Shown: positions 27,795 through 57,085, numbered from the stretch's first letter. The stretch: 64,000 bases of DNA from Vampirovibrionales bacterium (GCA_039794365.1 JBDIVN010000001.1:450753-514752); one strand, 5' to 3'. The notes: generated by a model not told the origin, from the letters alone. Translations and numbers: made by a program.

Positions 27795-28460
27795 ATGCCC
27801 GCGCCGACCATGACTCCGGCCTTTGGCCATTACGTACCGCTGAATGTCAACGACTACGCCACGCAGGTGGCGGGAAACAAGCATCTGGGCCTGTATAAAG
27901 TGCCGCCGTCGGGCAACCGGGAGTTCGACTGGTACTTCGTCCACCGGGGCAATTCCAAGGCCGCCGTCCATGCATTCACGGTCATTGAGAACGACCAGGG
28001 CGAAAAGTTCGTCCATCTGCTGGTGATGAAACGCCCGCCCCTGGGTGGCCGCCTGACCGTGGAACTACCCGCCGGGCTGTGGGGCGACACGGACGAAAAC
28101 GAGGATGTCCTTACCGCCGCCGAACGCGAAGTCAAAGAGGAAACCGGCTACGACATCGCCGGATCGATGATGCTCTCGCCGAATTTCTTCGCCACCTCGC
28201 CGGGCCTGACCACCGAGCAGAAAGCCTTCGCGCTGGTGAAGGCCAAGGGCCAACCAGGGCAGGATCACCAGGAGGCCGCGGAGAAGGACATCATCGTCGG
28301 CACCATGGACGTGCCCCTTGCCACATTCACGCAACACCGGGAATTCACCCGCTGGCTCAACCGCATGGATCACGAGGGCTACATGGTCAGCATGAGCGTG
28401 ATGGCCGCCCGCGGCCTGCTGCCCCCGAATCTGGGCCAAAAACTGGACCGGATGGCCTAA
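27795..28460 (+). CDS. NUDIX hydrolase (ADP-ribose pyrophosphatase-like)
   Basis: ELPAGL...AAEREVKEETG Nudix box and TSPG. Confidence 0.9.
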   Translation: MPAPTMTPAFGHYVPLNVNDYATQVAGNKHLGLYKVPPSGNREFDWYFVHRGNSKAAVHAFTVIENDQGEKFVHLLVMKRPPLGGRLTVELPAGLWGDTDENEDVLTAAEREVKEETGYDIAGSMMLSPNFFATSPGLTTEQKAFALVKAKGQPGQDHQEAAEKDIIVGTMDVPLATFTQHREFTRWLNRMDHEGYMVSMSVMAARGLLPPNLGQKLDRMA

Positions 28461-28673
28461 GCAGGAAGCCCGCCAAATTCACCCGTGAAAGGAATCCGGC
28501 GGACTATCCCGTAACCCGTCCGGCTTGCGCCGGAACCAATGTTTTGCTCACCATTGTTTTTCGGGTTCAAGTTGAGGTAGGTGTTCGTTGAGTAGGTTAG
28601 GTTATAGGGTCAGGTTGTTGAGGTAAACGTTGCGTGATGAGTGAGTGAGAAATCTGTTCTTCGAGGAAAGGAA

Positions 28674-28707
28674 GTGATCCGGCCACAACCGTGACTGGCC
28701 GGATCAC
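28674..28707 (-). terminator. Hairpin 3' of the Q/P/G-rich gene
   Basis: 12-bp perfect stem GTGATCCGGCCA/TGGCCGGATCAC followed on the minus strand by TTCCTTTC. Confidence 0.6.
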
Positions 28708-28719
28708 GGGTCGTAGGAA

Positions 28720-54005: not shown

Positions 54006-54040
54006 AAGCGATTTCACGTAAGCGGAAGGACGGACCCCCT

Positions 54041-55342
54041 ATGGCAACCTCGCAGCAATTGAACATTGAACAGCTCCTGCGCAGCAGCCGCCAGGCCTCG
54101 TATCGGATGGCCGTGCTGGGCACGGATCAGAAAAACGCGGCGCTGGAGCAGTTCGCCCGGCTCATCGAGGAAAACGCCGACTTCCTTCTGGAGGCCAACC
54201 GCAAGGACAAGGCGGAACAGGAAGGCAAAATCAGCCAGGCCCTTTACCAGCGCCTGGGGCTGGATCAGGGCAAGCTGAAACAACTGGTGCAGGGAATCCG
54301 GGATGTGGTTCACCTGCCCGATCCGGCAGGGCAGATCCTGAGCCGGACGAAACTCGACGAGGGCCTGGTGCTGGAAAAACAGACCGTGCCGCTGGGGGTT
54401 ATCGGAATTATCTTCGAATCCCGTCCGGATGTTATTCCGCAGATTCTTTCGCTGATTCTCAAAAGCGGCAATGCCGTGGTACTGAAAGGCGGCAGCGAAG
54501 CGCTCCATTCCAACCGGGCCTTCATGGCGCTGGTGGAGAAACTCAACGCCGCATGCCCCTGGCTGCCCGAAAGCTGGGCCAGCCTGGTGGACAGCCGCCA
54601 GGCGGTTCAGGAAATGCTGAACTATCCCCAGTACGTGGATTTAGTGATTCCCAGAGGCTCCAACGAACTGGTGCAGTCCATCATGGCGGCGACGAAGATC
54701 CCGGTCCTGGGCCATGCCGACGGCATCTGCCATCTCTACGTCCATGACGCGGCGGACATCGCCAAAGCCGTGCCGCTGGCCGTGGATGCCAAGGCTCAGT
54801 ACCCCGCCGCCTGCAACGCCCTGGAAACCCTGCTGGTAGAGGGGAAGATTGCTGATAAATTTTTGCCCCTCTTTGCCAAGGCCGCCCAAAAAGCCGGAAT
54901 TACCCTCAAGGGCTGCAACCGGACCCGGCAGGTTCTGCCGGATATCCAGCCCGCCACGGAGGAAGACTGGCGCACGGAGTACGGCGATCTCACCCTTTCC
55001 GTGAAAATCGTGGATTCGCCTGACGACGCCATTGCGCACATCAACACCTACGGATCGCACCACACGGACGGCATCCTGACGGAAAACCGGGACACCGCCG
55101 AGGACTTCGTGCGGCGGGTGGATTCGGCCAGCGTGTTCGTCAACGCCTCCACCCGGTTCGCCGACGGCTTTCGCTTCGGCCTGGGCGCCGAGATCGGCAT
55201 CAGCACGGCCAAGACCCATGCCCGCGGCCCCGTGGGGCTGGAAGGGCTGATCATCTACAAATACGTCCTGCGCGGCCAGGGGCAGATCGTCGCCAGCTAT
55301 ACCGGCGAAAACGCCCGCCCGTTCATGCACACAAGCTGCTGA
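54041..55342 (+). CDS. proA: Gamma-glutamyl phosphate reductase
   Basis: PLGVIGIIFESRP, LKGGSEA, IPRG, ACNALETLL and NASTRFADG..FGLGAEIGIST.K.HARGP. Confidence 0.98.
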   Translation: MATSQQLNIEQLLRSSRQASYRMAVLGTDQKNAALEQFARLIEENADFLLEANRKDKAEQEGKISQALYQRLGLDQGKLKQLVQGIRDVVHLPDPAGQILSRTKLDEGLVLEKQTVPLGVIGIIFESRPDVIPQILSLILKSGNAVVLKGGSEALHSNRAFMALVEKLNAACPWLPESWASLVDSRQAVQEMLNYPQYVDLVIPRGSNELVQSIMAATKIPVLGHADGICHLYVHDAADIAKAVPLAVDAKAQYPAACNALETLLVEGKIADKFLPLFAKAAQKAGITLKGCNRTRQVLPDIQPATEEDWRTEYGDLTLSVKIVDSPDDAIAHINTYGSHHTDGILTENRDTAEDFVRRVDSASVFVNASTRFADGFRFGLGAEIGISTAKTHARGPVGLEGLIIYKYVLRGQGQIVASYTGENARPFMHTSC

Positions 55343-55345
55343 TTC

Positions 55346-57085
55346 TCAGAACTGCCGGTTTCCGGAAGCATCCGCGTCATTGGCTATGACCGGACGCGAC
55401 TCGTCCGGCGCCTTATCCTTCCTTTTGTCTATCAGGTGGGCTTGGATGGTTTCATCGGAAACCGTCACACGGTTGACCTGGCCGTCGCGGATGTATGTCA
55501 GTTCCGGGTTGTGATAGACAAACCGGCGCAGACAGCCCTTGGTGAAGCTGTGGGGGTCCACCTCCTGGCCGTCCAGGTGGGTGATGACGTCTCCCTCGCG
55601 CAGGCCGATCTCTTCGGCCATGCCGCCTTCCTCCACACTGGTCACAATGACCCCGCCCTTGACCGAAAGATCCTGAACGTTGGCGGAAGCTTTCTCAAAG
55701 TAACCCCTCTCCGTTTCGAACTTCTCGCGGAATTCCTCCTCCCGCTTTTGCGCTTTTTCAAGCTCCTTCTGGTATCGAAGCTCCATTTTCTCCATATCGT
55801 CCTGCAAGCTGTCGATGGCATTCTTCCGGATGTCCCGGAAACTCTCCAGTTCCTGCTCGGCCAGCAGCACGGCCTGGCGGCTGTGGTACCATTTCTGCTC
55901 CAGCAACCGCAATTCGTTGTGCTGCGAATCATACGGGGTCAGATCGTAGGTAAAGCCGGGGATGGCAAAATTATCTACCGGCAGGCCGGCCTCGTAGGCC
56001 ACGATGGCATCGGCCACATCGTTGATGTGAATGCCCTGGTTCATGTCCGCCTTGCTGATAATACCCGAATTGTGCAGGGCGACAACTTCGCCGGTATGGA
56101 GGGTGACCGCGCTGCCCGAACTGCCGCCATCCGTGGGGATGGAATACTGGAACAGCGGAACCGCCTCCGAAGGACGCCAGCGCTGGGTGTGTGAAATCTT
56201 ACCATCCACGAAGGTGAACAGATAGCCCTTATGGTTTCCGGTCAGAGCGACGTAATTGCCTTTTTTCACGTTATTGCTGTCCTCGACAAAGCGGAAGGAA
56301 GGAAACGTTCCCTTCTCAAACGGTTCGCCATCCTCATCAAGCAACTGGATGTATGCCAGATCCCGCTGGGGGGATTCGAAAAGTATCCTGGCCGAATACT
56401 CGGAACCGTCCGCCAGCCGGACGTTAATCGAGCCGTCCGGGTTCTGTTCGGCATGTTCCGTAATGTGATGGTTGGTGATCATCTTGCCATCGGTGGACGA
56501 AAACCAGGCCGTGCCCATGTAACCGTTGAATTTCTTATCATCGAACCTGGCAGGGGTCAGGGGCGCATTGGGATCAATGGCGCCACCGCCCCTCATCCGG
56601 ATATGGCCCGTGCGGGCCTCCTGGTATTCGGCCAGCGGAGAAACATCCAGCGGACTGATCTGCGGAATGCGGACCCCGTCATCCTCCGCGGCGCGGCGGT
56701 TGATCTCCCCACGGGACAGTTCCTGCAACGGGTCCACGTCGGGGGCGATGTTGATCGCGTCCGTCCGGGGGTTCGAGAGCGACGTCAGTTCAAACGGGGA
56801 ATTTTCCACCGCCTGCGGGTTCGGGAATGATACCAGGTCAAACGAGGGATTTTCCACCGCCAGCGCCGGACCGGATATTGTTCCGGACATCACGTACATC
56901 AGACTGCCCAGCAGGAGCGGCAGCAATCTTTTATTCCGTTTGGGACGCGCCGCGCCGAAGCGGACAAACGTATCGCCGGCTTCTTCCGGATACGCCGCCG
57001 GGTTCCTGTATGGAACCGTTCCGGCAAAGGCCGGTATGGATGCCGTCTTAAAGGCCGGATATCTGTTCACGGACGTCACGTTCAT
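55346..57085 (-). CDS. Trypsin-like S1C/HtrA-family protease with coiled-coil insert and PDZ domain
   Basis: GTAW, ITNHH (His), RDLA (Asp), GGSSGS (Ser) and PDZ AEEIGLREGDVITHLDG. Confidence 0.85.
   Translation of the reverse strand: MNVTSVNRYPAFKTASIPAFAGTVPYRNPAAYPEEAGDTFVRFGAARPKRNKRLLPLLLGSLMYVMSGTISGPALAVENPSFDLVSFPNPQAVENSPFELTSLSNPRTDAINIAPDVDPLQELSRGEINRRAAEDDGVRIPQISPLDVSPLAEYQEARTGHIRMRGGGAIDPNAPLTPARFDDKKFNGYMGTAWFSSTDGKMITNHHITEHAEQNPDGSINVRLADGSEYSARILFESPQRDLAYIQLLDEDGEPFEKGTFPSFRFVEDSNNVKKGNYVALTGNHKGYLFTFVDGKISHTQRWRPSEAVPLFQYSIPTDGGSSGSAVTLHTGEVVALHNSGIISKADMNQGIHINDVADAIVAYEAGLPVDNFAIPGFTYDLTPYDSQHNELRLLEQKWYHSRQAVLLAEQELESFRDIRKNAIDSLQDDMEKMELRYQKELEKAQKREEEFREKFETERGYFEKASANVQDLSVKGGVIVTSVEEGGMAEEIGLREGDVITHLDGQEVDPHSFTKGCLRRFVYHNPELTYIRDGQVNRVTVSDETIQAHLIDKRKDKAPDESRPVIANDADASGNRQF

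Follow-up and report, generated by a model that had tools for sequence, protein, structure and literature searches.

In the flagellar export system as treated by Bryant et al. (2022, PMC8983047), early subunits present a two-part signal, composed of an N-terminal hydrophobic signal and a gate recognition motif that docks on FlhB-C, and at least 19 residues are needed between the two parts. Type III effector signals, in the set characterized by Arnold et al. (2009, PMC2669295), lie within roughly the first 25-50 residues, are in coil conformation, and are enriched in Ser and Pro and depleted of Leu, Asp and Glu. A leader with likenesses to both was encountered in a 64,000-nt stretch of DNA from Vampirovibrionales bacterium GCA_039794365.1 (JBDIVN010000001.1:450753-514752; the whole stretch is referred to as the window and its source genome as G000). 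There, a short motif centred on Phe recurs near the N-termini of unrelated enzymes. Analysis of the complete genome and of its relatives shows that this tag is real, restricted to the N-terminus, translated, selected at the protein level, kept among orthologues and unlike the catalogued signals. A paper describing such a leader was not found in the Vampirovibrio or Melainabacteria literature.

Motif statistics were obtained for the whole 3.49-Mb G000 genome (58% guanine plus cytosine (GC), 96% complete), in which 2852-2870 genes were predicted with a self-trained codon model that always chose the longest start. Such a longest-open-reading-frame (ORF) caller is crude and lets some non-coding DNA be translated at N-termini, and translations in the wrong frame (off-frame) therefore served as the control. 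A position matrix trained on the whole G000 genome by iterative refinement converged on a nearly invariant motif, [P/V/I]-[R/A/H/V]-F-[G/S]-[G/A/S], in which the Phe is invariant and which often has an Asp two or three residues ahead. The main cut-off, a score of at least 12, is passed by 171 of 2852 proteins (6.0%), and a score of 14 by 109 (3.8%). Per 10,000 residues, matches scoring at least 12 number 7.55 in the first 90 residues (193 matches), 0.39 later in the proteins and 1.45 in off-frame translations of gene bodies; at score 14 the corresponding densities are 4.77, 0.06 and 0.50. The density reaches 9-12.6 per 10,000 in residues 0-40, peaks between residues 10 and 40 and has fallen to the baseline of 0.4 by residue 90. 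Neither a C-terminal peak nor internal enrichment of the motif was found genome-wide.

Since the matrix had been trained on G000 itself, the statistics rest on untrained tests, namely a count of RFG[AGS] and tripeptide comparisons. The count of RFG[AGS] is 46 within the first 80 residues of proteins (229,221 residues) and 25 beyond residue 100 (696,431 residues), a six-fold gap in density. When the first 70 residues were compared with interiors in an unbiased tripeptide test, a check that the sequence-only reading of the window had itself proposed, RFG was found 111 times against 43 expected (P 4e-18), which bears out the N-terminal enrichment. It is the second most N-terminally enriched tripeptide, behind the signal-peptide signature LLL, and is followed by PAF, FSG, PRF, VRF and FGA. 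Outside the training genome, in 772 pooled genes of G002, G010, G019 and G093, RFG even ranks first (32 versus 7.4 expected, P 2e-11). The motif Phe is encoded equally often by TTT and TTC (123 times each), and no Arg or Gly codon goes unused. This free codon variation points to selection on the protein and rules out a motif acting at the DNA or RNA level. An ATG lies less than 30 residues ahead of the first motif Phe in 121 of the 171 leaders, and 47 leaders have no alternative in-frame start within 30 codons past the last motif.

In the window, four genes carry the tag, and their parts are as follows:

27795..28460, + strand: NUDIX hydrolase gene, from translation, with the Pfam NUDIX domain at residues 58-188
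27795..27965, + strand: leader of the NUDIX protein, residues 1-57, with the motif TPAFG(H) at 27813-27830 (matrix score 14.7)
29955..33026, + strand: gene for a divergent Lon-like AAA+ protease of 1023 amino acids, with AAA at residues 498-637 and Lon_C at 833-981 (Pfam)
29955..30152, + strand: leader of the Lon-like protein, likely start ATG 29982 (matrix scores 10.8 and 12.6)
30000-30011, 30048-30059 and 30105-30119, + strand: motifs PSFG, ARFA and VRFGA of the Lon-like leader, all inside the first 55 residues
32976..32990, + strand: C-terminal PKFSG of the Lon-like protein, probably a chance match, C-terminal enrichment being missing genome-wide
33501..34424, - strand: Tam (trans-aconitate 2-methyltransferase) gene with leader, from Pfam, NCBIfam and comparison with homologues
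34269..34424, - strand: Tam leader, residues 1-52, with LPKWG at 34368-34382 and EIRFGG at 34311-34328
34266-34268, - strand: canonical Tam start Met53; the NCBIfam Tam models begin at residue 53, ahead of MTWDP
55346..57133, - strand: gene for an HtrA-like membrane-anchored serine protease, from translation
56927..57133, - strand: leader of the HtrA-like protein, residues 1-69, likely start ATG 57094 or 57085 (matrix score 12.5)
57047-57058, 57020-57034 and 56951-56977, - strand: motifs PAFK, PAFAG and GDTFVRFGA of the HtrA-like leader
56858..56926, - strand: membrane helix after the HtrA-like leader, preceded by RPKRNKR

All leader strings quoted for the NUDIX, Lon, Tam and HtrA-like proteins in the sequence-only reading are present in the translations of these genes, which are the only four of 49 predicted window genes to reach a score of 12. 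Two weaker matches in the window, scoring 9.1 and 11.0, look like chance. The statement that the neighbouring arg, pro, glt and mtn genes lack the tag holds as well, as none of them scores at least 12 with the whole-genome matrix. The PKFSG at the Lon C-terminus, in contrast, had been counted as part of the pattern and has to be dropped, because a real C-terminal enrichment is absent across the genome. For the first ~300 residues of the Lon-like protein, nothing similar was found in other genomes (the query otherwise returned generic Lon matches), and the HtrA-like protease has no orthologues at E<=1e-10 in five relatives. No in-frame start codon separates the leader of the HtrA-like protein from its membrane helix, and by the positive-inside rule this leader would be placed on the cytoplasmic side of the membrane.

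Several other features of the window were recorded. Two low-complexity proteins rich in Gln, Gly and Pro, with many x-F-G-G or Q-x-G-F repeats, are encoded at 28720-29526 (-) and 51709-52524 (-), flanking tagged genes and a Flp-like cluster; similar proteins occur at C4:210627 and C8:143838 of G000, and they are reminiscent of FG-repeat proteins. The Flp-like cluster consists of three tandem paralogs of 309-333 residues (48503-49432, 49578-50555 and 50631-51632, all -), which combine a start like that of Flp-type prepilins (G-H-S/T-I/L-x-E-Y plus hydrophobic helix) with large C-terminal domains and Cys-rich tails. At 23070-25230 the GC content dips to 0.47 from about 0.58. This region holds two genes, for a HAD-like protein of 303 residues (23587-24498) and a membrane protein of 242 residues (24455-25183), and is bordered by repeat copies whose translation contains PALPCHSCEGRNP; a search of Rfam gave no match, and the region may be a small insert.

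Across the 171 tagged proteins, the leader measures a median of 40 residues from its start to the last motif and has a net charge of +2. Its composition is raised in Pro (1.8x), Ser (1.6x), Gly (1.36x) and Gln (1.34x) and lowered in Leu (0.56x), Glu (0.45x) and Asp (0.44x). One motif copy is found in 136 leaders, two in 32 and three in 3. In the 35 leaders with several motifs, copies are spaced by a median of 23 residues (interquartile range 18-35.5), the first being more often P-A/V-F-[GS]-G and the last [VI]-[RH]-F-G. A companion, D-x-F-[VQ]-R, occurs 16 times at N-termini, 10 of these in tagged proteins. A hydrophobic 15-mer (Kyte-Doolittle at least 2.0) within the leader plus 70 residues is seen in 12% of the 171 tagged proteins versus 29% of 2681 untagged ones and, where tagged proteins have such a segment, it comes after a leader of 40-80 residues. 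AlphaFold2 assigned a predicted local distance difference test score below 50 and no secondary structure to residues 1-64 of Tam, while the methyltransferase body was modelled confidently; the leader is hence predicted to be an intrinsically disordered N-terminal extension. No Pfam models matched in the leaders of 74 tagged proteins, and NCBIfam searches with the first 90 residues of 68 tagged proteins returned matches to the downstream enzymes only.

Orthologues provide a further view of the leader. SIMPL/DUF541 proteins are normally exported, and a hydrophobic N-terminus resembling a signal peptide is found at 19 of the 25 loci in the order. The other six (in G000, G002, G016, G018, G021 and G019) carry a Phe-motif leader and no hydrophobic stretch, and the tagged members, from five genera, have in common a V-x-F-G column that is conserved ~20 residues ahead of the domain. 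As this split into leader or hydrophobic segment shows, the leader occupies the place of the signal peptide. Of the 119 closest public Tam homologues (56-67% identity), nearly all have 251-262 residues and start with M-x-W-D/N-P. Three homologues of ~298 residues (P0002, P0008, P0016) have a leader with D-x-[LV]-x-x-F-G-[GN] ~12 residues before TWDP, so that D-x-[LV]-x-x-F-G is common to the Tam leaders of four orthologues. The canonical Met is lost in all three, and P0016 has no possible start codon at that position. Within the order, a Tam orthologue was seen in G002 only. The closest Tam homologues, with up to 67% identity, are leaderless proteins of 255 residues, and some leaderless ones (~56-62% identity) are assigned by their sources to Alphaproteobacteria, Methylomirabilota or Rokubacteria. 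Conceivably, Tam was acquired horizontally and the leader added afterwards.

Among 223 reciprocal best pairs between G000 and G002, both partners are tagged in 7, one only in 12 and neither in 204, and several of the one-sided pairs retain weaker copies of the motif. As judged from such pairs, the tag has evidently been gained and lost gene by gene. Distribution was assessed in 60-400 kb sampled from each of ten other genomes, with N-terminal, later and off-frame matches counted at score 12 (densities per 10,000, in this order, where given):

G002, family f1: 338 genes, 16 N-terminal matches, 5.3 / 0.14 / 1.26; present
G010, family f1: 171 genes, 4 N-terminal matches; present
G001, family f1, 50% GC: 178 genes, 3 N-terminal matches; weak
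G019, family f2, 51% GC: 109 genes, 6 N-terminal matches, 6.2 / 0 / 0.49; present
G093, family f3, 52% GC: 154 genes, 4 N-terminal matches; present, in typical contexts
G020, family f3, 46% GC: 197 genes, 2 N-terminal matches; not convincing
G028, family f3, 43% GC: 177 genes, 1 N-terminal match; not convincing
G045, family f4, gut type, 33% GC: 377 genes, 2 N-terminal matches; not convincing, matrix not enriched
G131, family f23: 79 genes, 1 N-terminal match; not convincing
G105, family f22: 40 genes, 0 N-terminal matches; sample too small to say

The tag is thus used by at least three families of the order, on about 4-6% of their proteins, whereas two low-GC genomes of the order and one sample each from two other families of the class are without it. 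Taken together, the comparisons of orthologues and genomes indicate a modular tag that is of old standing in the order and that at least two lineages with reduced, low-GC genomes have lost. The central proposal of the sequence-only reading, a lineage-specific, non-hydrophobic N-terminal tag on unrelated proteins, is therefore sustained by the 171 tagged proteins among 2852 and by the other genomes of the order. Its guess at the lineage, Vampirovibrionia, also fits: the closest public relatives of the second FlhA of G000 (62-66% identity) come from records titled Vampirovibrio, Gastranaerophilales and Melainabacteria. A separate peculiarity was seen in the two low-GC f3 genomes, in which a run of two to five ATG codons (MMM..., MMS...) opens 18 of 197 predicted genes in G020 and 34 of 177 in G028 (loci L081-L092 and L136-L145), among them the genes for EF-Tu and for ribosomal proteins L19 and S9. 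Of all N-terminal tripeptides, MMM ranks first there (26 versus 0.1 expected), and MM starts are only mildly raised in G000 (100 versus 67 expected).

Pfam annotation covered 74 of the 171 tagged proteins, namely those in the 20 densest 20-kb stretches and hence a non-random subset, and 74 untagged proteins drawn at random from 249 clearly untagged ones in the same stretches. No Pfam family was assigned to 35 of the 74 tagged versus 22 of the 74 untagged proteins (Fisher P 0.04). A tagged orphan of 697 residues gave no usable match in the ESM Atlas, and a search for loci related to it returned nothing. Soluble enzymes with the tag include isocitrate dehydrogenase, a soluble pyrophosphatase, two PrkA kinases, two Lon proteases, M17 and M24 aminopeptidases, an acyl-CoA ligase, an ADP-forming acetyl-CoA synthetase and a Ski2-like helicase, as well as metallophosphoesterase, HD, NUDIX and amidohydrolase proteins, Tam and a histidine kinase. 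Three adjacent trypsin-like proteases, TonB, DUF885 and SIMPL represent the membrane-anchored or envelope type among the 74. The order leader, basic stretch, first membrane helix is found in the HtrA-like protease, five trypsin-like proteases, an FtsH-like paralog, TonB and DUF885. The five trypsin-like proteases are adjacent Trypsin_2 paralogs at C14:57366-63755 of G000, each with leader, basic stretch, membrane helix and protease domain. By their GC content at third codon positions (GC3), tagged genes are not foreign (0.766 versus 0.783).

The idea that tagged proteins are extra paralogs of untagged copies applies to Lon, isocitrate dehydrogenase, leucyl aminopeptidase, the FtsH-like protein, the Ski2-like helicase, SIMPL and the soluble pyrophosphatase but fails as a rule, because paralogs within the genome exist for only 39 of the 171. 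Where there is such a partner, it mostly lacks the tag, as for isocitrate dehydrogenase, leucyl aminopeptidase, the Ski2-like helicase, hydrolases and the FtsH-like protein. Of three Lon genes in the genome, two are tagged, and the tagged pyrophosphatase is the sole family-I enzyme, alongside a membrane H+-PPase.

A plausible role for the leader, to which we assign a rough probability of 0.4, is that of a non-Sec sorting or export signal that is read in the cytoplasm and acts N-terminus first; the flagellar-type export gate is the one route that comes into question for it. The strictly N-terminal position of the motif suggests a process that starts at the N-terminus, i.e. translocation or unfolding, rather than simple docking. 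Sorting or export is favoured by the type-III-like composition, the spacing of 20-30 residues in double-motif leaders and the replacement of the signal peptide in SIMPL proteins. According to this proposal, a receptor facing the cytoplasm would bind the unfolded N-terminus through the Phe motif; the receptor is possibly the flagellar-type type III export gate, whose FlhA component has two paralogs in this order. The cell could then hand out its additional copies of proteases, phosphohydrolases, kinases and metabolic enzymes along with many orphans, and tagged membrane proteins might be held at the same site as the exported ones.

In G000, the FlhA paralogs are encoded at C3:17099-19069 (-) and C15:39963-41930 (+). 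One copy belongs to a fliPQR-flhB operon, and the other lies beside rod, hook, fliE, fliF and fliH genes. FHIPEP/FlhA is present in all 41 genomes of the order, in two copies in 39 of them, and across the class there are two, one or no copies depending on the family; the sample from family f23, which is without FlhA (79 genes), contains no credible motif. The flagellar-type gate is the only cytoplasm-facing exporter found that takes unfolded N-termini without a hydrophobic signal. Other candidates for the reader were rejected. VipB and Phage_sheath_1, as markers of type VI secretion or contractile injection, were not found in G000, and neither were Linocin_M18 and microcompartment shell proteins, which encapsulin or microcompartment targeting would call for. 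Peptidase_C39 (PF03412) for double-glycine export was likewise not found in G000, with 7 of 14 control genomes positive. A second SecA is not at hand, with one copy in each of five genomes with and without the motif, and TatC is present in all six genomes tested, motif-bearing or not. A type IV prepilin or Flp leader does not fit either, given the order F-G instead of G-F and no hydrophobic helix after it, and the Flp-type N-termini of the window (48503-51632) look different. FlhA duplication itself was rejected as a discriminator, since it fails within the order.

Several observations weigh against export. The sequence-only reading had suggested checking whether the tag co-occurs with a secretion system, and none of the tested machines co-varies with the motif. 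Both FlhA genes are kept in G020 and G028, whose samples lack the motif, and both FlhA loci look purely flagellar; injectisome genes were not seen in the genome. The rod, hook and FliE proteins of G000 (C15:31598-35393) score at most 6.4 with the motif matrix. On the side of the cargo, the annotated tagged enzymes are mostly ATP- or cofactor-dependent cytosolic types, and the leaders of the membrane proteins should, by the positive-inside rule, face and stay in the cytoplasm. Tagged genes cluster weakly (17 adjacent pairs versus 10 +/- 3 in shuffles), and tags are gained and lost on housekeeping orthologues, exemplified by a malate/lactate dehydrogenase-like protein that is tagged in G002 and untagged in G000. 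Moreover, a Pro/Ser-rich, acid-poor composition is common to disordered regions generally, and export of the tagged proteins is a proposal derived from sequence.

A bolder version of the export reading seems unlikely. In it, each genome would encode a previously unseen secretome of some 110-170 proteins, which the gate with duplicated FlhA would take up by their N-termini and pass into prey or host cells. The cargo of this delivery could comprise the ATP-dependent Lon, PrkA, aminopeptidases, phosphohydrolases, the helicase, CoA ligases and orphans, for which ATP would be available in the recipient. If true, the tag would do in bacteria, by means of a defined motif, what transit peptides do for organelles, and extra enzymes would work in the cytoplasm of another cell.

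Among the alternatives to export, cytoplasmic docking survives best, although we consider it the less probable of the two. Here, the Phe motif would bind a hub or scaffold, for instance at the pole, at an envelope-spanning machine or at a prey-contact site, and thereby gather enzymes and the tails of proteases. Such a role would suit the cytosolic, ATP-dependent types among the tagged enzymes, the probable cytoplasmic-side leaders of the HtrA-like, five trypsin-like, FtsH-like, TonB and DUF885 proteins, and the presence of up to three motif copies whose distances vary, a trait of multivalent short linear motifs; it would also be in line with translocases that do not co-vary. A plain docking motif could sit anywhere in a protein, yet this one is strictly N-terminal and replaces the signal peptide in the SIMPL family, and no candidate hub was found.

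Rather unlikely, though still worth weighing, is an N-terminal degron or processing site. An adaptor, an AAA+ protease (ClpXP, ClpCP, FtsH or Lon) or a dedicated peptidase could recognize the leader and reset the enzymes at a switch in the life cycle. AAA+ proteases begin at a disordered, free end, and this would account for the strictly N-terminal placement; the leaders of membrane proteins would be cytoplasmic tails of 40-70 residues, and many tagged proteins are themselves proteases. Recognition via ClpS after a cut before the Phe is improbable, however, and the ClpS N-degron was rejected: ClpS (PF02617) occurs in 0 of 41 genomes of the order (five controls, Synechococcus and four others, were positive), and the residue before the Phe is not uniform but R, A, H or V. 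There is no adaptor candidate, and the motif has long been kept on orthologues of very different functions. Owing to the cytoplasmic topology, the ATP-dependent carriers and the lack of a co-varying machine, docking and, with less weight, degradation stay alive beside export.

An unusual extension of Sec or Tat signals, like the extended n-region (extended signal peptide region) of autotransporters, is far less probable and is largely refuted by the missing h-region. About 12% of tagged proteins do have a hydrophobic segment soon after the leader, a single Arg beside the Phe is faintly reminiscent of the Tat box, and TatC is encoded. Nevertheless, 88% are without a hydrophobic segment within 70 residues past the leader, there is no twin arginine, P, V or I occupies position -2, and TatC and a single SecA occur regardless of the motif.

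It is very unlikely, too, that the tag is an annotation artefact, in which ORFs called too long would turn GC-rich non-coding DNA ahead of the true starts into Pro/Arg/Gly-rich strings. The concern has some basis, as off-frame translation gives 1.45 matrix matches per 10,000, above protein interiors at 0.39, as 2246 of 2572 six-frame matches at score >=10 lie outside gene frames, and as some tagged calls are probably false (HU, PriA, RibBA, trigger factor, an MFS transporter and perhaps Obg of G019). Yet the 193 matches compare with 37 expected if all first-90 residues were non-coding-like and 10 if they were interior-like. Among 268 ATGs upstream of the motif, 41.8% have a Shine-Dalgarno-like site in front of them, versus 12.6% of 199 ATGs up to 60 codons downstream, against baselines of 14.9% for interior ATGs and 46% for all gene starts. 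GC3 amounts to 0.62-0.65 in leaders, 0.51 in non-coding DNA, 0.78 in interiors and 0.68 in the first 40 codons of ordinary genes, and leaders overlap upstream genes less often (9.9%) than the average (14.3%). In addition, G019, with 51% GC, shows the motif equally clearly (6.2 versus 0.49 off-frame), and the leader motif is conserved among SIMPL and Tam orthologues.

A signal for a type IV secretion system, as proposed for the attack of Vampirovibrio on its prey and also suggested for the tag by the sequence-only reading, is hardly credible: a VirB4-type ATPase is encoded in G000 at C4:84670-85290 with three tagged genes 10-20 kb off, but VirB4 (PF03135) was found in only three of the order's 41 genomes (G000, G012, G017), the motif-bearing G002, G010, G019 and G093 not being among them, and known signals of this system are C-terminal.

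Only a few sorting signals are defined by a motif, namely those of Sec and Tat, the lipobox, and the tags of prepilins, sortases and exosortases; each has opened a field of cell biology. The present tag is recognizable on about 6% of the proteins in a lineage that is uncultured, probably predatory and the sister group of the photosynthetic cyanobacteria, and its carriers are ordinary-looking enzymes that no predictor would call exported or localized. If it is an export signal, it would define the effector set of Vampirovibrio-like predators and offer a portable tag for protein delivery; if it serves docking or degradation, it would represent a proteome-wide regulatory layer. In practical terms, the motif helps gene callers to correct starts in these genomes, and a leader peptide with a Phe-to-Ala control is a simple bait for the reader.

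Compared with known systems, the leader resembles the early flagellar signal, in the form outlined at the outset, in being unchaperoned, N-terminal and disordered, with short motifs that contain a key Phe, and in having elements ~20-30 residues apart (here a median of 23 in the 35 multi-motif leaders). A reading on the cytoplasmic face at an export gate would be a further parallel, and the gate genes are present in G000. It differs in that its motif is not of the F-x-x-x-hydrophobic type given for flagellar subunits, that 136 of 171 leaders have a single motif, that the cell's own rod, hook and FliE proteins do not score, that the cargo consists of enzymes and orphans instead of axial proteins, and that the motif is missing in two genomes keeping both FlhA genes. 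With the type III effector signals described above, the leader shares its position, disorder and Ser/Pro-rich, Leu- and acid-poor composition, as well as its occurrence on unrelated and often lineage-specific proteins. Those effectors, as characterized there, are without a consensus motif, whereas a single Phe-centred motif is nearly invariant here.

Tat signals are likewise motif-defined and N-terminal with Arg and Phe, and Tat can carry folded cofactor enzymes; the leader, in contrast, is without twin Arg, without a residue between Arg and Phe, and without an h-region in 88% of cases. Double-glycine leaders, which are known on large proteins in cyanobacteria, are also non-hydrophobic N-terminal leaders and end similarly in G-[G/A/S], but the residues before G-G differ and the leader described here has up to three copies, which a cleavage site would not need. 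Eukaryotic organelle targeting relies on the PTS2 nonapeptide (peroxisomal targeting signal 2) or on plastid transit peptides with a conserved Phe or an FGLK-like motif. Like the leader, these are Ser/Pro/Ala-rich, acid-poor and non-hydrophobic N-terminal extensions with a short motif on extra copies of ordinary metabolic enzymes, which they route into a different compartment; they belong to another domain of life with other machinery, and no such compartment is known in these bacteria, so that this is a resemblance only. In its sequence features, the leader would hence be an N-terminal sorting signal in kind, set apart from each of the catalogued ones by the differences listed here.

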